Assembly (NCBI GenBank): GCA_963780035.1
Contig: CAWAAG010000024.1
Location: forward strand, 96,290 to 160,289
DNA length: 64,000 nucleotides
Direction of reading: 5' to 3'
Source: an uncultured Acidobacteriota bacterium
Lineage (GTDB): Bacteria; Acidobacteriota; Terriglobia; Acidiferrales; UBA7541
The notes beneath the pieces were generated by a model. That model was not told the origin of the DNA. It saw only the letters and a list, made by a program, of their open reading frames with translations, and did no database searches. How positions within the stretch are numbered: position 1 is the stretch's first letter; every line of letters begins with the position of its first letter. Below are positions 1,954 through 56,883 of this stretch, piece by piece. Both the position numbers and the translations under genes were made by a program.

Positions 1954-3552
1954 ATGGGCAATCCGCTGTTCAAGAAAAAGCCAATGGATTGGCTGTTGAA
2001 CGAAGCGAAAGCCACCGGCGAGCACACTCTAAAACGCACCCTCGGCCCGGTCTCGCTCACGGCTCTCGGCGTCGGCGCGGTCATCGGTGCGGGCATCTTC
2101 GTGCTCTCCGGACTCGGCGCTCATTATGCCGGCCCGGGCTTGATGATCTCCTTCGTCATCTCAGGATTGGGCTGCGCCTTCGCGGGACTTTGCTACGCTG
2201 AATTCGCGGCCCTGATTCCACTCGCGGGCAGCGCTTACACCTACGCGTACGCCGCTCTGGGCGAATTGGTCGCCTGGATCATCGGCTGGGATCTCACTCT
2301 TGAATACGCCATGGGCGCCAGCACGGTCTCCTCCGGCTGGTCCAATCACTTCATCGAATTTCTCAAGATTTTCAATTTGAAGATGCCGCTATGGCTGGCC
2401 TACGACCATTGGACCGCTCTGGTCACGGCCGAAAACGTGATCGCCCGCCAAATGGCCCACACCTCCAACCCCGGCTTGGTCGAAGGCACCCAGGCCTTCC
2501 TCTTGAAGGTGGGTGACATCATCGCCGCGCAATCTCCTGAGTTGCTCCATCGCGCCCACGACCTCGTCGCCGCTCCCACGCTCTTCGGAGTGGAGATCGG
2601 ATTCAATCTTCCCGCGTTTCTAATCGCTCTGGTCATCACCGCCGTCCTGGTGATCGGTATCAAGGAGAGCGCCAACTTCAACGCCACCATCGTCATTGTG
2701 AAGGTCGGCGTCGTGCTCTTCGTCATTTTGTTAGGCATGCATTACGTGAATCCTGGCAACTGGGGACACAGTTGGTCCACTTTCGCTCCCACCGGATTCG
2801 GAGGCATCGGCAGGGGAGCGGCCTACATATTTTTTGCCTATATCGGTTTCGACGCCGTCTCCACCACTGCCCAGGAAGCCAAAAATCCTCAGCGCGACCT
2901 GCCCATCGGCATCATTGCCTCCCTGATTTTGTGTACGATCCTTTACATCCTGGTGGCAGCCGTCCTTACTGGCATGGTGCCGTGGAAGGAAATCAATATT
3001 GAGGCCCCGCTCTCCGTCGCCTTTCTGGATCGCGGCTTGACCAAGGCTTCCTACCTGATTACCGCCGGGGCTCTCGCCGGACTCACCAGCGTGATGCTCG
3101 TCATGCTTCTCGGTCAGACCCGCGTGCTGTATTCCATGGCCAACGACGGCCTGCTCCCCCGCAAATTCTTCGCGGCCATCCATCCCAAATTTCGCACCCC
3201 CTACAAGAACACCATTCTCGTCGGCCTCATCGCGGCCATCGTCGGCAGCATCACTCCGATTTCCATCATCGGAGAGATGGTGAATATCGGCACGATCTTC
3301 GCCTTCATCATTGTCTGCCTCTCCATCATCGTCCTGCGCAAAACGAACCCCGGCCAGCCGCGCCCGTTCCGCACGCCGTGGGTTCCGTTCGTTCCCATTC
3401 TCGGAATTCTCTTCAATGGTTATATGATGTATAAGCTCGGCTGGATCAATTGGGCGCGCCTGATCATCTGGCTGATCATCGGATTGGTGGTTTATTTCAC
3501 TTACAGTCGCCATCACAGCCGCGTGCAGCAGAACGATCGCAGCGCGCTGTGA
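1954..3552 (+). CDS. Amino acid permease (cationic amino acid transporter-like, APC superfamily)
   Basis: 532-aa polytopic ORF. GAVIGAGIFVLSG and AQEAKNPQRDLP motifs, long extra-membrane loop and C-terminal extra TMs as in CAT-type permeases. A GGAG-like sequence (gaaggag) lies upstream of the ATG. Confidence 0.85.
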   Translation: MGNPLFKKKPMDWLLNEAKATGEHTLKRTLGPVSLTALGVGAVIGAGIFVLSGLGAHYAGPGLMISFVISGLGCAFAGLCYAEFAALIPLAGSAYTYAYAALGELVAWIIGWDLTLEYAMGASTVSSGWSNHFIEFLKIFNLKMPLWLAYDHWTALVTAENVIARQMAHTSNPGLVEGTQAFLLKVGDIIAAQSPELLHRAHDLVAAPTLFGVEIGFNLPAFLIALVITAVLVIGIKESANFNATIVIVKVGVVLFVILLGMHYVNPGNWGHSWSTFAPTGFGGIGRGAAYIFFAYIGFDAVSTTAQEAKNPQRDLPIGIIASLILCTILYILVAAVLTGMVPWKEINIEAPLSVAFLDRGLTKASYLITAGALAGLTSVMLVMLLGQTRVLYSMANDGLLPRKFFAAIHPKFRTPYKNTILVGLIAAIVGSITPISIIGEMVNIGTIFAFIIVCLSIIVLRKTNPGQPRPFRTPWVPFVPILGILFNGYMMYKLGWINWARLIIWLIIGLVVYFTYSRHHSRVQQNDRSAL

Positions 3553-3627: not shown

Positions 3628-5619
3628 GTGAACCGAATTTCTCCTCGCCGGTTATTCGTCTTCCTGCGGCACACCACGCCGCTGGACCGCGTCGCTCTGG
3701 CGGTCATCGTTTTTTACGCTGCATTCCGAGTCGTCGCCCTGTTTCGCGAGGCTTTGCCCCTTTCGGGATTCCTTAGCTTCCTCAGTTTTCTTGCGGCGGT
3801 CTACTTGCTCGTCCGCTTGATTCCTTGGTTCCGCACGAAATTCATGTGGACGCTGCGCAACCGCCTCATCGTCGCCTACGTTTTCATCGCGGTCGTTCCG
3901 GTTATCTTGCTGCTCTGCATGGCGGGCCTCGCGACCTACGGCCTCTACCTGCAACTGGGCGCCCACGTATTCCAAGACGACCTGCACGCTCGGATCAGCA
4001 CCATTTCCGCCGATGCGGACGCCCTCGCCGGCGCTGTCGCGCAGGAAGCGGCCCAAGGCGCCTCTCCCACTAGCGAAGCGATCCTTTCCCGGCCCGGAGT
4101 CGCGGATTTAATCGCGGCGGCCCGCCGCGAATGGCCCGATCTCCGCGTCTTCCCCAATCACGGCGAGCGCCTGGTGCAGGCCGGTGACGGCCACGAATTC
4201 GCCGGCCTGGTCGAATTCGAGGGCAAAATCTGGGTCGCCGCCGCGGTCAAAAAGACCGGGCCTGCCGGACCGTTCTTCCTCGTCGTCGGCACTCCTCTCA
4301 ACGCCGCGTTCCTCGATGGCCTGCATTCCGACGTCGGCCCCATTCAAATTATTCCCCTGCGGCCTACCAACCAACAAACTCCCGCAGGCGCCTCGCTCAG
4401 TTTCAACGGCAAGGTCTTCGTCCCCGGCGAACAGATCGCCAGCCGTCGTCGCACCCTCGGGCCTCCGTCCAACTGGTTTGACCTGCGCATCGGTGGCGTT
4501 TCCACTATCGACTTGGCGCACATCGGCCCGCAAACCGGCAACGCGCCGGACGCCGTCCTCGCCACCTTCGCCATGCGCGCCTCCGCTCTCAATCGCCGCC
4601 TCTTCACTTCCGTCGGCGAGATTGGACCGCTGCTCGAATTAGCCCTGGTCGCCGCCGGCGTGATTTTCCTGGCGTTGGAATTCGCCGCCCTCATTACCGG
4701 CATCGTGCTTACGCGCACGATCACTCGCGCCGTCGGCGATCTCTATGAAGCCACTCTGCACGTCCGCCGCGGCGATTTCACGCGGCGCATTCATGTGCAC
4801 CAGCGCGATCAGCTCGGCGCTCTCGGCGAATCCTTCAACGAAATGACCAGCTCCATCTCCGAGCTGATCGTGGAGCAAAGCAAGCGGCAGAAACTCGAAA
4901 ACGAAATCGCCATCGCCCGCGAAGTTCAGGCGCAACTCTTCCCGCAGGTTTTGCCGGCGTTGCCGGGGCTGGAACTCGCCGCCATCTGCCGCCCCGCGCG
5001 CGTCGTCAGCGGCGACTATTACGATTTCATCCGCACCAGTCAGGACTGCGTGGGCATCGCGCTCGCGGACATCAGCGGGAAGGGAATTTTCGCCGCGCTG
5101 CTCATGGCCAGCTTGCAAGCCGCTCTGCGCAGCCAGGCTTCGCTCGACGGCAAATGCGGGACTGCCGAACTCGTCGCGCGCCTGAATCGCCACGTCTTCC
5201 GCAATACTTCCGACGACCGCTATGCCACATTCTTTTACGCGGATTTCGACGTCTCCACCCGCGTGCTCACGTACACCAACGCCGGCCACCTCGCTCCGTT
5301 TTTCGTATCCGGCGATAAAGTCCAGGAACTCAGCGAGGGCGGCACGGTAATCGGCATGTTCGAGGATTGTCCGTACACTCAAGGCAACATCAAAGTAGAA
5401 CCGGGAAGCCTGCTGGTAGCCTTCAGTGACGGCCTGACGGAACCGGAAAATGTCTACGGCGAAGAATTCGGCATGCAGCGCCTGAAAGAAGAAATCCTCC
5501 GCCAACGCAGCATGCCGCCGCAGCGCATCGCGGAAAATCTGATAGCTGCAGCGGAACAGTGGGCCGGCACGCCCGAGCAAGCCGACGACATAACCGTGGT
5601 AATCGCCCGCATGGGCTAA
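3628..5619 (+). CDS. Membrane sensor PP2C-type phosphatase (TM sensor region + HAMP + SpoIIE/RsbU domain)
   Basis: 663 aa. Two N-terminal TM regions flank a ~260-aa extracytoplasmic segment. HAMP-like linker (TRAVGDLYEAT...FNEMTSSI). C-terminal PP2C motifs SGDYYD, ADISGKG, TNAGH, FSDGLTE and DDITVV. Confidence 0.8.
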   Translation: MNRISPRRLFVFLRHTTPLDRVALAVIVFYAAFRVVALFREALPLSGFLSFLSFLAAVYLLVRLIPWFRTKFMWTLRNRLIVAYVFIAVVPVILLLCMAGLATYGLYLQLGAHVFQDDLHARISTISADADALAGAVAQEAAQGASPTSEAILSRPGVADLIAAARREWPDLRVFPNHGERLVQAGDGHEFAGLVEFEGKIWVAAAVKKTGPAGPFFLVVGTPLNAAFLDGLHSDVGPIQIIPLRPTNQQTPAGASLSFNGKVFVPGEQIASRRRTLGPPSNWFDLRIGGVSTIDLAHIGPQTGNAPDAVLATFAMRASALNRRLFTSVGEIGPLLELALVAAGVIFLALEFAALITGIVLTRTITRAVGDLYEATLHVRRGDFTRRIHVHQRDQLGALGESFNEMTSSISELIVEQSKRQKLENEIAIAREVQAQLFPQVLPALPGLELAAICRPARVVSGDYYDFIRTSQDCVGIALADISGKGIFAALLMASLQAALRSQASLDGKCGTAELVARLNRHVFRNTSDDRYATFFYADFDVSTRVLTYTNAGHLAPFFVSGDKVQELSEGGTVIGMFEDCPYTQGNIKVEPGSLLVAFSDGLTEPENVYGEEFGMQRLKEEILRQRSMPPQRIAENLIAAAEQWAGTPEQADDITVVIARMG

Positions 5620-5630
5620 CCAGCAGTACC

Positions 5631-5647
5631 GCCGGCGTCCCGCCGGC
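5631..5647. repeat. REP-L hairpin gccggcg-tcc-cgccggc (copy 1)
   Basis: 12 nt after the phosphatase stop. Same element with flanks agta(c/g)c...tc at 16685-16701. No T-tract, so not a clear intrinsic terminator. Confidence 0.65.
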
Positions 5648-5858
5648 TCGCAGCACTTATGTGCAAGGACCAAAATCAACCGCTGCCGGGTCTGCAAAAA
5701 ATCGTCCAGCCGCCTCTGCGAATAGCTTTGCGATCTATCTACCGTGGAGGGAGCGATTGTAGTGGCCCGGCCGGTGTCGCCACGCGCGGCATCGTAGCCG
5801 CGCAGCGGTCCCAATGCCCATTTTCGCCCGATGATTTAGATCCGGCGAACCGCAAAAA

Positions 5859-7247
5859 CTACGTGCGCTTGATAACGACGGCAGTCAGGTCATCCTGCTG
5901 TTTGGTGCCGCCTGAAAATTCAATGACGGCTTTGTAAAGCGTGGAGATAATCTCACGCGAAGATTTGTCCCGCGCCGAGCGGACAGTTTCCTGCAACCGC
6001 TTCGTGCCGAATTGCTCGTCTTGGGCGTTGGCCCATTCAAAGAATCCGTCGGTCGCCAGCACCAGCAAGTCACCCGGATTGAGTTCCAGATTCAACGGCG
6101 GCTCCGAAATCAAAACGGGTGAAATGCCTAAGGGTAATCCCTGCGCGTCCATCGCGTCGAAGCTATCTTCTTTCAATAAATAAAGGAATAACGGCCCGTG
6201 TCCGGCGGAAAGCAGCTCCACGCGTGAACTATTGGGACCACAAACGGCCGCGACGAACGTCACAAAACGCCCTTCCATGAGGTCCGCGGAAAGCGCAGCG
6301 TTGATTCGTTCCATCGCGATCAGCAATTCGTTCTCGCCGGTAAAGTTAGCTCTCTCATAGGCTCGGCAGATGACCGCCAGCAAAGCGCTCGGAATGCCGT
6401 GGCCGGTGACGTCCGCCAGGACCACCAACACCCTGCCATCCGGGAGCAGCTGCCAATCGTAATAATCTCCTCCGGTTTGATCTGCCGGTTGATTCCATCC
6501 GGCAATATCAAAACCAGCGATCTCTGGCATGGAACTGGGGAGCAGAGATTGCTGGATGGAGCGAGCCACTTCCAGATCGTGTTCCAATTTATCCACCTGC
6601 CGCTGCAATTCTGCCTCACGGAGAGCTGCTTCCACTTGTTTCCGGATTTCACGGGCCACCGCCCCGGCTACCACGCCGGCGACAACCATCGTGAGGGCAT
6701 AGCTGAACACCGTCTTCTGGGGTGAAAGCAGGGACGCCCCTCCACCAAGAGTTGGTTTCCAGCCAAGATACATTGCCGCCGCCAGGTAACTTACTGCCGC
6801 CACGATTCCCGAGAGCGCGCTGGCGGCCGGATTCAGGCGCAACGTCGAAAGGATGATAAACACGAAAAATATGAGCACGGCCGGATTGGCCAGCGCCCTA
6901 TAGGCGGGGTCAATGGAAGCACTCGTAACAAACGCAACCGCTAAGGCTGGCAGGGACGTTTCCACCAGGACATTGATGATCCAGGTCAGTTTTGCAATAT
7001 CCCCGCTGGCCGCGATCGCGCGTTGCACCGCGCGCAACATCCAGCACTCATATCCGACGAACAACGCCAGGACCAGGGAACTGAGCATCCACAGCCGAAA
7101 ATCTTCCCGGTTAAAGAGGATGGCAGTCCGAATCGTTCGCAGCGAGAACGCTGCGGCAATGGCGCCGAGCACGATCAGAATGCGCAGACGCTCGCTTTTC
7201 AATAGCGCTTGTTGGAATGCGACGGACTTTTCGCGAAGTTCAGTCAT
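5859..7247 (-). CDS. Polytopic membrane PP2C-type phosphatase (SpoIIE family)
   Basis: 462 aa. About 6 N-terminal TM helices, a coiled linker, then PP2C motifs GGDYYDW, ADVTGHG, SAGHGP, ATDGFFE and DDLTAVV. Convergent with the preceding phosphatase gene. Confidence 0.8.
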   Translation of the reverse strand: MTELREKSVAFQQALLKSERLRILIVLGAIAAAFSLRTIRTAILFNREDFRLWMLSSLVLALFVGYECWMLRAVQRAIAASGDIAKLTWIINVLVETSLPALAVAFVTSASIDPAYRALANPAVLIFFVFIILSTLRLNPAASALSGIVAAVSYLAAAMYLGWKPTLGGGASLLSPQKTVFSYALTMVVAGVVAGAVAREIRKQVEAALREAELQRQVDKLEHDLEVARSIQQSLLPSSMPEIAGFDIAGWNQPADQTGGDYYDWQLLPDGRVLVVLADVTGHGIPSALLAVICRAYERANFTGENELLIAMERINAALSADLMEGRFVTFVAAVCGPNSSRVELLSAGHGPLFLYLLKEDSFDAMDAQGLPLGISPVLISEPPLNLELNPGDLLVLATDGFFEWANAQDEQFGTKRLQETVRSARDKSSREIISTLYKAVIEFSGGTKQQDDLTAVVIKRT

Positions 7248-7425
7248 GATGCTTTGCGCAGGTTGGCAAACTCAATGGTAGTGCAATTGGCCCGTTGAGA
7301 ACGATCGTGGCGATAAACGCGGAAAGACCTGGCGCTTTGGCTGCCGCATGCATGGAGCGTGCCACGTGGCGCACATCTTAGGTCGCGTCGGCAGCATAGT
7401 CAACGGATGCACCGCTCGCTGTCGC

Positions 7426-7468
7426 TGCAAAGTAGAAATGTCCGGATTGTGCAAAGTAGAAATGTCCG
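7426..7468. repeat. Tandem direct repeat, 19-nt unit tgcaaagtagaaatgtccg x2 (24-nt period)
   Basis: Two identical 19-mers at 7426-7444 and 7450-7468, in the 400-bp intergenic region upstream of the membrane PP2C gene. Confidence 0.85.
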
Positions 7469-7656
7469 TTTTCATGCATGACTGAGGTCTCGATCGCGGA
7501 TTCAATATACGCGCGGCAAGACCACATCCGCGAGTGCGGCGGCTCGTTTGTCCCCAGGAACGAAGGGCCGCCGCCTTGCAAAATTAAGATTCAGCGCGAA
7601 CGAAGCTGGCGAGGTGTGCCCGCCATCGCGCACGCACCTCGCCCAAGCGAATAGAA

Positions 7657-19673: not shown

Positions 19674-20981
19674 CTAACGCCGCCGCAATCGCACGACCGA
19701 TTCCATATGAAAAGTCTGAGTAAATAAATCGAATAAGTGTACTTCTGTGCAATCGTACCCGCCTTTGACAAACAAGGCAAGATCGCGCGCCAAGGTAGAG
19801 GGGTCGCACGACACATAAGTAACCCGCGCCGGAGCAATCTTCGCAATCCGTTGTATCGCCTCGGGACTCACGCCAGCCCGCGGCGGATCCAGCACCACCA
19901 GCTCAGGGCGCTCCTTGCAGCGCTCCACGAACCTCTCAACCTCCGCGGTACGCACCTCGATCGTGCCCCGCCCACGCATATTCGTCTCCAGGTCGCGCGC
20001 CGCCGCGGGATTCGACTCCACCGCAACTACCCGCTCAAATCGTTCCGCCAGTGGCACGGAAAATAATCCCACTCCCGCGAAAAGATCCAGCGCCAGGCGC
20101 CCACCCTCTTCGCGCTCTACAACTTCACGCGCTAATTCCTCCACCAGGAACCGGTTCACCTGAAAAAATGAAAAGTGTCCGACGCGGTAGGCGATTCCTC
20201 CAGCCGCATAATCCAGAAATCCCGGACCATACAATTCCATCCGGTCATTACGGGGATCGTGAAAGAGCAAACTCGCAATCTCCGGCACCACGCGCCGAAA
20301 CGTCTCCGCGTGTTCCGCCGCTCGGGAAGGGAACCCCGCGAAAGTCGCCGTCAGCAGCAAATTGCTGTCTGCAGCGTCCGCGAACGCCTCAATCTCGCGC
20401 AATCCGCGCGGCAACGCTCCGCCCGCCAACGCCCCTCGCAGTGCCAGCAGCGTCTTCAGCAGCAGTGGCGAAACGATCGAACAATCTTCCACCGCGCAAA
20501 GCGCCGTCGAGTTCGCCCGAAAATACCCGATTCCAAGCGCATCTTTGCGTTCTGACCCGGTCTCCGCCGCCTCACCCGCGCCAGCTTCCAGCGGCCGCAC
20601 TTTCCACTGCGCCCGATTGCGATATGCCCATGGAGAAGAAGATCCGTGCGTCACGATCTCGCCGGTCCATTCGATCCGTCCCAGCCGGCGCATAGTCTCG
20701 CGCAAAATTTCTCTCTTGTAGCCCAGCTGCCCCTCATAAGGAATGTGCTGATAATCGCATCCTCCGCAAACTCCAAAATGCGGGCACCGCGGCACAATGC
20801 GCTCCGCGGAAGCCTGCAAAATCTGCTCCACTCGTCCGCGCACAAATTTCTTCTTCTGCTCCACCGGCGCAACCGCGACGCGCTCCCCAGGCAGCACGAA
20901 CGGCACAAAAACGGTAACTCCCTCGTGACGCGCGAGTCCCTCGCCGCCATAAATCAATTTTTCGATTGTGACATCCACCAT
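19674..20981 (-). CDS. rlmD: 23S rRNA (uracil-C5)-methyltransferase, RumA/RlmD family (TRAM + Fe-S Cys cluster + SAM MTase)
   Basis: Start moved to the ATG at 20981 (MVDVTIEKLIYGGEGLAR, TRAM domain). CPHFGVCGGCDYQH cluster, DLFAGVGLFS SAM motif, DPPRAG and SCDP catalytic motifs. The track's N-terminal extension merely translates a REP palindrome. Confidence 0.8.
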   Translation of the reverse strand: MVDVTIEKLIYGGEGLARHEGVTVFVPFVLPGERVAVAPVEQKKKFVRGRVEQILQASAERIVPRCPHFGVCGGCDYQHIPYEGQLGYKREILRETMRRLGRIEWTGEIVTHGSSSPWAYRNRAQWKVRPLEAGAGEAAETGSERKDALGIGYFRANSTALCAVEDCSIVSPLLLKTLLALRGALAGGALPRGLREIEAFADAADSNLLLTATFAGFPSRAAEHAETFRRVVPEIASLLFHDPRNDRMELYGPGFLDYAAGGIAYRVGHFSFFQVNRFLVEELAREVVEREEGGRLALDLFAGVGLFSVPLAERFERVVAVESNPAAARDLETNMRGRGTIEVRTAEVERFVERCKERPELVVLDPPRAGVSPEAIQRIAKIAPARVTYVSCDPSTLARDLALFVKGGYDCTEVHLFDLFTQTFHMESVVRLRRR

Positions 20982-21045
20982 GATTGCGTTGGCCGTTTCC
21001 GGGAAGTGAGCGTCGCACCCGGTATGTGAGATTTCTTTGGCGACC

Positions 21046-21074
21046 GTAGGGGCGGGTCTTAGACCCGCCCCTAC
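21046..21074. repeat. REP-A palindrome (copy 1)
   Basis: gtaggggcgggtcttagacccgcccctac. Intergenic, upstream of the corrected rlmD start. Confidence 0.85.
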
Positions 21075-21145
21075 AACGTCGGACACACTTGCATGCGCCG
21101 TACGTGCGTGGCGTGCTCCGCGCGTCCGGCCAAAACGCCGCCCCG

Positions 21146-48650: not shown

Positions 48651-48681
48651 AATTTTCGCTCACACCAGCAGCAGGAAGTCC

Positions 48682-48847
48682 GCCACGGAGGCACAGAGAC
48701 ACAGAGAAAACCCAAAATTTAAAAAGACCAACAACACTACGATGACCAGCCGGCCGCTCCGCAGCGAGCGTCAGTATCTTTCAGCGCGGGTATTTCCTGG
48801 CTGTCGGTTTTTCTCTCTCTATCTCTGTGTCTCGGTGCCTCTGTGGC
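48682..48847. repeat. Inverted pair of cacagag-type elements flanking a 92-bp spacer
   Basis: gccacggaggcacagagacacagagaaaaccc (48682-48713) pairs with the reverse complement of ggtttttctctctctatctctgtgtctcggtgcctctgtggc (48806-48847). Lies in the fmt-rsmB spacer. Confidence 0.8.
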
Positions 48848-48858
48848 AGATGTAGCCG

Positions 48859-49866
48859 TTACGATCCAAATCTCTCCCCATCCACAATCCGCGCACCACG
48901 AAGAAACTCCGCCGCCGCCACGCGCTTCCTCCCCTCGACCTGCACAAATTCCAACCGCAGCGCGCTCCCATCGCCGCACGCCACAAACACCTCGCCGCCA
49001 GAGGAGCTTATGGTGCCCGGCAGTATCGCCGAGGGGTGATGTTCGGCCGTAGGGGCGGGTCTCAGACCCGCCCCCGCTGTCGCTCCGCCAAAAAATGATC
49101 GGTCGGCCAAGGGCCGTCCCCAAATCCCGCACAATTTCCCGCGAAACAAAGTAAACGCCCCCGGCCACGGCTGAAACCCGCGCATCCGGTTGTAAATCAC
49201 CGCCGCCGGCAAAGCCCAATCAATCCTTCCATCCTCTTTTTTCAAAGGTGGCGCAAACGTAGCCTGCGCCGAGTCCTGCGCCACCGGCGTAATCGCGCCA
49301 CCGGCCAATCCGCGCAGCGTATCCACTATTAGCGGCCCCCCAGCCTCCGCCATCCGCGCAGACAATTCCGGCGCCGTCTCCTCCGCCCCGATCGCAGTCT
49401 CCCACCGCAGCAGCATCGGCCCGGTATCGAGCCCCGCGTCAATGCTCATCGTCGTCAAACCCGTCCGCGTCTCGCCCAGCGCAATCGCCCAGGCAATCGG
49501 CGCCGCCCCGCGATATTTCGGCAAGAGCGACCCGTGCAGATTCACCCAACCGAGCCGCGGCAGCGCGATCAATCGCGCCGGAATAATCTGCCCGTAAGCG
49601 ATGATCACCACCACGTCCGGCGCGACGCGCGCGAAATACTCGAACGCCTCTTCACCCCGGATTTTCTGCGGCTGATAGACAGCAATCCCCGCAGCCAGCG
49701 CCTCCGCTTTCACCGGCGCGGCGGAAATCTCGCCGCCCCGCCCCCGCGGACGGTCTGGCTGCGTCACCACTCCTTCAATTTTGAATTCAGGATTCGCGAT
49801 TAATTCGCGCAAGGCAGGAACTGCAAACGCCGGCGTGCCGCAAAAAACAATTCTCAGCGGCGGCAC
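48859..49866 (-). CDS. fmt: Methionyl-tRNA formyltransferase (contains an in-frame REP-palindrome insert)
   Basis: 335 aa. IVFCGTPAFAVP, VVTQPDRPRGRG, NLHGSLLPKYRGAAPI and the C-terminal EF-Tu-like domain. Residues GATAGAGLRPAPTAEHH are encoded by the palindrome at 49049-49075. Confidence 0.9.
   Translation of the reverse strand: MPPLRIVFCGTPAFAVPALRELIANPEFKIEGVVTQPDRPRGRGGEISAAPVKAEALAAGIAVYQPQKIRGEEAFEYFARVAPDVVVIIAYGQIIPARLIALPRLGWVNLHGSLLPKYRGAAPIAWAIALGETRTGLTTMSIDAGLDTGPMLLRWETAIGAEETAPELSARMAEAGGPLIVDTLRGLAGGAITPVAQDSAQATFAPPLKKEDGRIDWALPAAVIYNRMRGFQPWPGAFTLFRGKLCGIWGRPLADRSFFGGATAGAGLRPAPTAEHHPSAILPGTISSSGGEVFVACGDGSALRLEFVQVEGRKRVAAAEFLRGARIVDGERFGS
49049..49075. repeat. REP-A palindrome (copy 2) located inside the fmt coding sequence
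   Basis: gtaggggcgggtctcagacccgccccc. On the coding strand it reads GAGLRPAPT in frame. Confidence 0.85.
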
Positions 49867-56486: not shown

Positions 56487-56515
56487 GTAGGGGCGGGTCT
56501 GAGACCCGCCCCTAC
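56487..56515. repeat. REP-A palindrome (copy 3)
   Basis: gtaggggcgggtctgagacccgcccctac. Intergenic. Confidence 0.85.
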
Positions 56516-56550: not shown

Positions 56551-56883
56551 CTAGCCCTCCTCATCCAGCACGAGCTCGATCTCGCTGGTCTCTTTGTTCC
56601 CGCCGCCCGCGTCGTCGCTCGGCGCGACGAAACCGGTCTGTCGCGGCGTGCGCGGCGTCAAGGGCCAGGCGATCTTCTGCATCTCCACCAGCGTGTGGCT
56701 GGTCATGCTGACGTACCGCGAGCATTCCCGGACGGCAAACGTGACCCGCCGCTCCGGGTAGGTCGCCTGGCACACCACCAGCAATTCGCTCTCGCGGAAG
56801 CCGCGAGCGATGTGCGCCTGCGTGCAACTCTCGCACAACGACGGCCCCTGCACCGGCGTCCCGCCTTTTACCTTCACTCCCAC
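56551..56883 (-). CDS. Small hypothetical protein with four cysteines (CxxC...C...C)
   Basis: 110 aa, MGVKVKGGTPVQGPSLCESCTQAHIARGF...VVCQ...RECSRYV. Acidic tail. Normal composition, no domain recognised. Confidence 0.5.
   Translation of the reverse strand: MGVKVKGGTPVQGPSLCESCTQAHIARGFRESELLVVCQATYPERRVTFAVRECSRYVSMTSHTLVEMQKIAWPLTPRTPRQTGFVAPSDDAGGGNKETSEIELVLDEEG

Follow-up and report, generated by a model that had tools for sequence, protein, structure and literature searches.

The closest described relatives of the element reported here are the GTAG repetitive extragenic palindromes (REPs), which together with their REP-associated tyrosine transposases (RAYTs) form units called REPtrons (Nunvar 2010; Bertels & Rainey 2011; PMC3733652). 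The described GTAG families have stems of 5-13 bp and loops of 2-20 nucleotides (nt) (PMC3733652), and REP-RAYT systems are presented as specific to lineages and, for the most part, inherited vertically. Di Nocera et al. 2013 (PMC3733652) reported intragenic GTAG and CGTC REPs in many species, including in genes for tRNA synthetases and DNA repair, and argued that such intragenic copies occupy loops or linkers. We describe here a 29-nt palindrome in a 64,000-nt stretch of DNA from an uncultured soil Acidobacteriota bacterium (Acidiferrales, UBA7541; contig CAWAAG010000024.1 of assembly GCA_963780035.1, positions 96,290 to 160,289), hereafter the window, in which one of its three copies lies in frame inside fmt, the gene encoding methionyl-tRNA formyltransferase (Fmt). 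Like the GTAG REPs, this repeat is a short GC-rich stem-loop with a GTAG tag; its copies are dispersed, mostly near gene 3' ends and between convergent genes; repeats flank a Y1/HUH gene (in stretch L104), stems covary, and a minority of copies stand in frame in genes, including those of translation enzymes. It differs from them in that GTAG is mirrored by CTAC, the whole 29-mer being one perfect palindrome around a 1-nt centre, and in that the copies are singletons and not head-to-head dimers. Moreover, unlike the lineage-specific REP-RAYT systems, the identical sequence spans at least 11 phyla, and RAYT-like genes hold a REP in their own coding sequence. No string of the 29-mer family was found in the text or supplements of PMC3733652.

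Palindromic repeats found in frame in genes are also known as the Rickettsia palindromic elements (RPEs; Ogata et al. 2000, as cited in PMC3733652). The repeat described here resembles them in lying in frame in housekeeping genes, at surface-exposed permissive positions, and in being missing from orthologues. RPE-1 measures about 100-150 bp and encodes 30-50 amino acids (aa), and to our knowledge RPEs are restricted to Rickettsia; on the contrary, our repeat has 29 nt (10 aa), is pan-phylum and is linked to a transposase family. REPINs (Bertels & Rainey) are likewise non-autonomous, RAYT-associated and long-persisting in bacterial lineages, but a REPIN consists of two inverted REPs and a spacer, whereas the window copies are lone palindromes, the nearest other copy being more than 7 kb away. 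We found no second inverted REP near any window copy and rejected a REPIN identity. Finally, with the subterminal hairpins of the insertion sequences IS200/IS605 (TnpA Y1), the system shares the transposase superfamily PF01797 and an expected recognition of DNA hairpins. Those hairpins are imperfect and located at the ends of autonomous insertion sequences, whereas the repeat here is free-standing.

We consider it probable that the palindrome is a GTAG-tagged REP spread in trans, one copy of which is tolerated in frame, as a passenger, in a permissive loop of Fmt. The features on which the argument bears are the following.

21046-21074, no strand assigned: REP copy 1, full 29 nt, centre base T, at the 5' edge of a TRAM/tRNA (uracil-5)-methyltransferase gene.
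49049-49077, minus strand: intragenic REP copy in fmt, with a 23-nt perfect core at 49052-49074, encoding Fmt residues A264-T273 (AGAGLRPAPT).
56487-56515, no strand assigned: REP copy 3, full 29 nt, centre base G, between convergent genes.
48859-49866, minus strand: fmt (methionyl-tRNA formyltransferase), an intact open reading frame (ORF) of 335 aa, in the gene order def-fmt-rsmB.
49030-49095, minus strand: whole extra segment of Fmt, 66 nt or 22 aa, about residues 258-279, delimited by alignment with L198/P0010 to within a few codons.

A first-pass annotation, made from the sequence alone, had placed the palindrome at 21046-21074, 49049-49075 and 56487-56515, and our scan of the window confirms the core GGGGCGGGTCTNAGACCCGCCCC exactly at 21049-21071, 49052-49074 and 56490-56512, i.e., three copies where 0 are expected, with 0 matches in 100 dinucleotide-preserving shuffles. 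These copies are the sole perfect hairpins with a stem of at least 10 bp in the 64 kb. Copies 1 and 3 are complete 29-nt perfect palindromes, GTAGGGGCGGGTCT-N-AGACCCGCCCCTAC, with a 14-bp stem and the GTAG tag on both sides; the fmt copy keeps its GTA tag on one side only (49049-49051), the other (49075-49077) having degenerated to CGC on the plus strand. Folded as RNA, the hairpins have a calculated dG of -29.7 (copy 1), -29.1 (copy 3) and -25.4 kcal/mol (fmt copy), with z-scores against shuffles ranging from -3.3 to -6.8. An intrinsic transcription terminator, which takes a GC-rich hairpin followed by a T-run, was rejected: read directly, no T-run follows the hairpin at any of the three copies on either strand, and an Rfam scan of the window matched no family.

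The two copies outside fmt had both been called intergenic, which is true of copy 3 and only probable for copy 1. Copy 3 stands 35 nt beyond the stop codon of a small ORF that is conserved (56551-56883, minus strand). Its orthologue is found in the related stretch L197, and L196 is without the segment; we looked there for a clean empty site, but L196 misses a 74-nt block and not the bare element, so that no target-site footprint can be read. Copy 1 falls within the first 14 codons of the longest possible methyltransferase ORF (19674-21086, minus strand), which starts upstream of it and would have the REP annotated as codons 5-14. It lies upstream of the first Pfam domain and therefore probably belongs to the 5' leader of the gene. 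The methyltransferase N-terminus (window 21037-21086) is probably over-extended by the choice of the longest ORF, because no domain begins before residue 37 and candidate ATG codons are present downstream of the REP, near 20975-20985.

The host ORF of the third palindrome is uninterrupted, as the first-pass annotation had it, and not split near the element. Formyl_trans_N covers residues 5-183 and Formyl_trans_C, which spans the insert, residues 208-325; both flanking parts are in the same frame and recognisable as one protein, which passes the NCBIfam fmt equivalog TIGR00460 (255 bits for a cut-off of 201.5). By structure as well as by sequence, it matches solved Fmt structures (PDB) best, and the identical protein is recorded on four contigs (NCBI, ENA, Logan), as the Fmt of a Candidatus Acidiferrales MAG (Acidobacteriota, Terriglobia). 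The gene had been termed essential; we prefer to call fmt a near-essential housekeeping gene rather than one strictly essential in all bacteria.

To place the extra residues, we aligned the protein with 120 homologue clusters and sorted its nearest relatives by length class. The 313-aa class, 74-81% identical to the window Fmt and keeping the aroC-def-fmt-rsmB synteny, has a 14-residue loop without the insert. The 335-aa class has a 36-residue loop with ...GAT-VGAGLRPAPT-... at its centre. The window Fmt, said earlier to be about 20 residues longer than typical, thus exceeds its nearest orthologues by 22 aa, and the alignment of close relatives that had been proposed as a check does return forms without the segment. 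Only 10 of the 22 extra residues derive from the palindrome, which occupies the centre of the segment; the full 29-mer reads VGAGLRPAPT in the fmt frame, and the first codon in the window, GCG instead of GTA, gives AGAGLRPAPT. The insert aligns to the loop between the ...VW... strand and PGTI, equivalent to E. coli Fmt residues ~251-262, i.e., the variable C-terminal loop before the PG(T/S)I motif where it had been expected. Mapped onto an AlphaFold model of moderate quality (mean predicted local distance difference test score, pLDDT, 69.5), residues 260-279 are coil with a pLDDT of 35-38 (below 50), between strands 244-252 and 285-289. The loop varies from 14 to 56 residues across Acidobacteriota and is therefore a hypervariable, permissive site. 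The insert is thus predicted to lie in a surface loop and not in the core or the active site.

Further length classes were found among the orthologues. The 324-aa class retains the left palindrome arm and has the right arm deleted; the 338/339-aa class retains the stem and has 9 nt more in the hairpin loop; the 346-aa class has 33 nt nested within the hairpin loop; and the 354/355-aa class carries a tandem duplication of the segment. In total, about 80 other orthologue clusters from many metagenomes show the insert, be it whole, in a decayed, half-deleted or duplicated state, or with REP material nested in it. The length variants that were sequenced, four in number (+9, +33, +57 and -33 nt), are all multiples of three, and fmt is therefore still under selection. 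At the DNA level, we compared 13 orthologous sequences, all with the same synteny. The insert has decayed by non-compensatory changes in L199, L200 and L205 and is half deleted in L204; the peptide is therefore dispensable. The earlier proposal of a loop "exapted or tolerated" keeps its second term and loses the first, since the segment is decayed or partly deleted in several lineages. A metagenome scan for Fmt relatives returned mostly distant insert-less proteins (57-75% identical), which served as outgroups only and not as a DNA-level test.

The palindrome is a GTAG-tagged REP by its size, stem stability and tag, and it is not lineage-specific. Counting one genome per species, exact copies of the 29-mer occur with unrelated flanks in at least 114 stretches from metagenome-assembled genomes (MAGs) of at least 11 phyla; all these survey figures are lower bounds, among the matches listed. 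The taxa concerned include Chloroflexota (Anaerolineae, Dehalococcoidia, Chloroflexia, Caldilineae, SAR202), Acidobacteriota, Alpha-, Beta-/Gamma- and 'Delta'-proteobacteria, Planctomycetota, Rhodothermales, Chlorobiota, Gemmatimonadota, Riflebacteria, Hydrogenedentota and Elusimicrobia. Several genomes hold at least 5-11 palindrome loci each, and DNA of related Acidiferrales carries only about one copy per 60-100 kb. The dispersed, REP-like nature proposed at first reading is borne out, the repeat having the hallmarks of a GTAG-type REP. The unit ends at GTA...TAC: 205 of 248 half-sites have G at -3, with GTA ahead of the GGGG core, and there is only a weak Y preference at -4. We rejected a longer unit resembling a miniature inverted-repeat transposable element, as the flanks of 124 distinct copies are unconserved beyond GTA/TAC and, on inspection, the 66-nt fmt insert has no inverted-repeat ends. 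The plasmid collection gave no palindrome match and viral contigs only 2 matches in 2.9 million; neither is therefore an obvious vehicle for spread across phyla.

Other palindromes accompany the 29-mer. Acidiferrales hold a second, longer REP subfamily, GTAGGGGCGGGTCC(C/T)GCAG(T/A)CGCGGGACCCGCCC, with 13-bp inner arms. In one Chloroflexia MAG, different palindromes headed by GTAGGGGC, e.g., GTAGGGGCGCAGCGCGCTGCGCCCC (VGAQRAAPL), stand beside the 29-mer (in the flanks of L008:6482 and L091:628), and this co-occurrence suggests a superfamily sharing the GTAGGGGC head.

Most of the 121 exact copies are intergenic, and at least 8 loci, among the matches listed, have verified genic copies. As many as 34 of the 121 lie in an open frame with at least 60 codons on each side, but most of these frames were rejected as genes, being Arg-rich antisense or intergenic artefacts of GC-rich DNA without Pfam match. 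A second translation enzyme carries the element: in L030, from an Anaerolineales MAG, the 29-mer at 6638 lies in frame in PheT (4799-7480), in the catalytic-like tRNA_synthFbeta domain, followed by a partial second arm (VGAGLRPAPTGPAPT). Other in-frame copies were found in the C-terminal tail of GltB (L106), in ThiD (L060), in a GT9 glycosyltransferase (L008), in the linker of a VWA protein (L042), in a YfhO-like membrane protein (L062) and in an nSTAND-WD40 protein (L073). Five tandem copies with 46-48-nt spacing occupy an adenylate-cyclase/AAA_16 ORF of Ca. Promineofilum glycogenicum (L039:2229-2441); four of them read (PTDAPLVGAGLRPAPT)n and the last uses the other open frame. A CRISPR array was rejected there, as the spacers measure just 17-19 nt and are nearly identical, and as the array is in frame in the cyclase/AAA gene.

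The palindrome itself sets which frames can be read: one is always open, the second is open unless the centre base is T, and the third is closed by the TAG of GTAG. The verified genic copies are read in the stop-free frames, as VGAGLRPAPT or RGGSxTRPY. That in-frame palindromes are rarely documented outside Rickettsia, as the first-pass annotation stated, is too strong, because PMC3733652 already lists many intragenic REPs; the same 29-mer is moreover found in PheT, GltB and ThiD. The REP in the Fmt loop is an instance of an already documented phenomenon, and it is this copy's preservation at the DNA level that is unusual.

Genomes other than the source link the same REPs to a transposase. In L104, a Y1_Tnp gene (PF01797, 40.8 bits for a cut-off of 23) has a REP on either side, at 3109-3137 and at 3681-3709, and a third inside. 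The three stems differ from one another and yet each is 100% self-complementary, so that the changes are compensatory. In L012, three REPs stand upstream of a Y1 transposase gene, and L108 is similar. For the three RAYT-like proteins of L104, L012 and L108, the best NCBIfam model is NF047646, 'REP-associated tyrosine transposase', with 68, 68 and 41 bits for an equivalog cut-off of 80, against 24-26 bits on the IS200 model, which is a further difference from IS200/IS605. These transposases are only about 50% identical, although the 29-mer is identical across phyla.

Each of the three RAYT-like genes (L104:3109-3709, L012:1681-2147 and L108:4061-4119) holds a REP-derived stretch in its own coding sequence, at the same position, between an HUH strand and the next helix, and in different variants and frames (RGGFQTHPY; VGAGLRPARIKRAGLRPAPT; GRVSDPPL). 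Their hosts belong to three phyla (Anaerolineales, Planctomycetota and a 'delta proteobacterium'). This arrangement could correspond to self-targeting or autoregulation.

According to the reading that we favor, a short non-autonomous hairpin would be mobilised in trans by a REP-associated tyrosine (Y1/HUH) transposase, and one REP copy, together with about 37 nt of extra sequence, would have entered the hypervariable loop between two beta-strands of the C-terminal domain of Fmt. The insert would have survived because its frame is stop-free, giving a Gly/Ala/Pro-rich and probably disordered peptide (VGAGLRPAPT), and because the loop tolerates length change. The enzyme would still be selected, the insert being neutral or nearly neutral and bringing no new functional module. 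We infer both that a RAYT mobilised the repeat in this lineage and that the insert is neutral with regard to the function of Fmt. Several observations weigh against this reading. The insert measures 66 nt and not 29, with about 37 nt lying beyond the palindrome. The bit scores of the RAYT-like proteins, at 68 at best, fall below the NCBI equivalog cut-off, and a search of the 64-kb window and of about 250 kb from related Acidiferrales gave no ORF with a RAYT/HUH motif. In the gene tree, the clade of the window Fmt groups with insert-less 313-aa forms, so that a single ancient insertion followed by plain vertical descent fits poorly. Finally, simple neutrality does not predict the conservation of the palindrome at the nucleotide level.

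This conservation is marked. When distant orthologues (about 73-77% aa identity) are compared, the four-fold sites of the rest of fmt agree in only 30-40% of cases, i.e., they are saturated, whereas those of the palindrome codons are identical at 5/5 to 8/8, only the unpaired centre base varying, and the rare codons GTA, AGA, CCT and GGT are retained. In six near-intact orthologues, a set chosen as intact and therefore biased, four of five four-fold sites are invariant, against 18% gene-wide (P ~0.005). Comparisons with less bias go in the same direction: when the 10 insert-bearing orthologues that can be aligned are all taken in pairs, the palindrome codons have a nucleotide identity of 0.77 and the loop codons on their flanks one of 0.51, and at third positions the identity is 0.74 for the palindrome and 0.53 for the whole gene. 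In most lineages, the palindrome has clearly lasted longer than neutrality would lead one to expect. Since the peptide is dispensable, any constraint that is present bears on the hairpin, as DNA or as RNA. It is probably the hairpin DNA, and not the peptide, that is kept near-perfect by constraint or homogenisation, and this is the least certain step of our argument. The candidate causes are selection for the hairpin, homogenisation by copies located elsewhere, and re-insertion.

It is possible, although we hold it for rather unlikely, that the fmt copies of the two insert-bearing clades do not go back to one ancient insertion, either because the loop is a hotspot for REPs or because the copy is periodically overwritten, by gene conversion or RAYT replacement; this would explain both its intactness and the conflict in the gene tree. 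In a neighbour-joining tree with the loop masked, the window's clade (clade A, P0001-9) and the 313-aa forms are grouped in 93% of bootstraps, the large insert-bearing clade B is monophyletic in 67%, clades A and B are never sisters, and the outgroups are short-looped; the tree is, however, poorly resolved within the group of clade A and the 313-aa forms. Other REPs have also reached this loop. In L130 (3258) and L134, which belong to a different acidobacterial lineage and whose Fmt is 63% identical, a sibling REP variant, GGGGCGGGTTTCAAAC..., lies in the same loop and adds only 10 aa, which is certainly an independent REP hit on the same Fmt loop. In the 338/339-aa forms, the second REP subfamily replaces the canonical copy (L202:10790-10827), and this subfamily is intergenic as well at L201:19662-19700; the 346-aa forms are composites of both subfamilies (L197:10790-10851). 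The canonical form of the GGGGCGGGTTTCAAAC... variant also adjoins the RAYT-like gene of L012 (2023-2049).

On the other hand, clades A and B share the insert length (+22 aa), a 9-nt left flank, GGAGCGACC, and an upstream D-x-S motif, which point to common descent or allele transfer. The centre base of the palindrome differs by clade, being G in clade A and either C or A in clade B. Part of this argument is weakened by the intergenic copies of Acidobacteria, which share the short flanks GACC-[palindrome]-AA(C) with the fmt copy; part of the flank common to A and B may therefore belong to the element as it is found in this phylum. We searched for a recombination tract behind the tree conflict, by sliding-window DNA identity and by protein identity per segment, and rejected it: nowhere is clade A closer to clade B than to the 313-aa forms, and no tract is detectable beyond the loop. 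The dip in identity that follows the loop falls in a stretch that evolves fast whatever the group. The candidate histories are an allele transfer over a short tract, a double hit by one and the same extended element, and one gain with several losses.

The two clades also differ downstream of fmt. The fmt-rsmB spacer measures about 200 nt in clade A genomes, including the window (48651-48858), and in clade B, fmt and rsmB overlap by 4 nt in five of the eight genomes examined (e.g., L203:11005, L204:10972). In L199 (11079-12447), two ORFs (194 and 237 aa) are called for the rsmB downstream of fmt, in place of one of 455 aa; this is due either to a frameshift or pseudogene or to an error in the assembly of long reads.

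Another explanation takes the hairpin in fmt as a selected cis-element, with the peptide as a by-product: it could act on the def-fmt-rsmB mRNA, by ribosome pausing, by protecting it against exonucleases or by setting relative expression, or on the DNA, as a site bound by gyrase or another protein. The conserved synonymous sites in an otherwise saturated gene are what it predicts, and the palindrome is the best-conserved part of the loop in the 10 insert-bearing orthologues as well as in 27 protein cluster representatives, where consensus identity reaches 87% for the palindrome residues against 54-61% for the flanking loop residues. The strong stem (-25 to -30 kcal/mol) and the family variants, which keep their pairing via compensatory changes, agree with it too. 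We nevertheless judge it improbable. Beyond the bias of the six-sequence test noted above, the hairpin is destroyed or deleted without compensation in L199, L200, L204 and L205, the 313-aa relatives do without it, and the identical sequence is present in hundreds of contexts without relation to one another, so that the locus is not necessarily what its conservation depends on. Moreover, a stable 3' end within the ORF would be expected to give non-stop mRNAs.

An ordinary lineage-specific loop under peptide selection, with the palindromic DNA and the other two copies coincidental, is very hard to uphold. GAGLRPAP is the best-conserved part of the loop, and L130 and L134 keep the peptide LGAGFKLAP while their synonymous sites have drifted. 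However, the presence of the 29-mer at two non-coding window sites and at more than 100 unrelated loci across phyla effectively refutes it, and furthermore rare synonymous codons are retained, the modelled loop is disordered, and many orthologues that look functional have lost the peptide or have it scrambled or truncated. As for an assembly or sequencing artefact, or an fmt pseudogene broken by the repeat, such repeats often break assemblies and some copies do lie at contig ends (L009, L097), but the single frame through both domains, the identical protein on four contigs, and the insert or its remnants in some 80 orthologue clusters with length variants in multiples of three leave it next to no credit.

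What goes beyond the ordinary here is the identity of the 29-mer across phyla, the persistence of the intragenic copy at the nucleotide level and the REPs inside RAYT-like genes. A 29-mer common to at least 11 phyla contrasts with the vertical inheritance and lineage specificity ascribed to REP-RAYT systems. A bolder view, which we regard as doubtful, is that the 29-mer serves as recognition hairpin to a RAYT system that would be ancient, pan-bacterial and domesticated and would actively maintain its copies, even in coding DNA, by what could be copy-correction, replacement or selection on the hairpin. This would explain the near-perfect intragenic copy, the remodelling of fmt in multiples of three and the REPs in RAYT genes. 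A REP in a conserved gene has a built-in neutral clock, its synonymous sites, and the maintenance or decay of REPs is thus directly measurable. For annotation, the peptides VGAGLRPAPT and RGGSxTRPY will recur in MAG proteomes, where they can inflate ORFs, create false N-termini and mislead homology searches. If such a maintained system exists, REP-RAYT systems would act generally, across phyla, as a source of insertions in the loops of housekeeping proteins.

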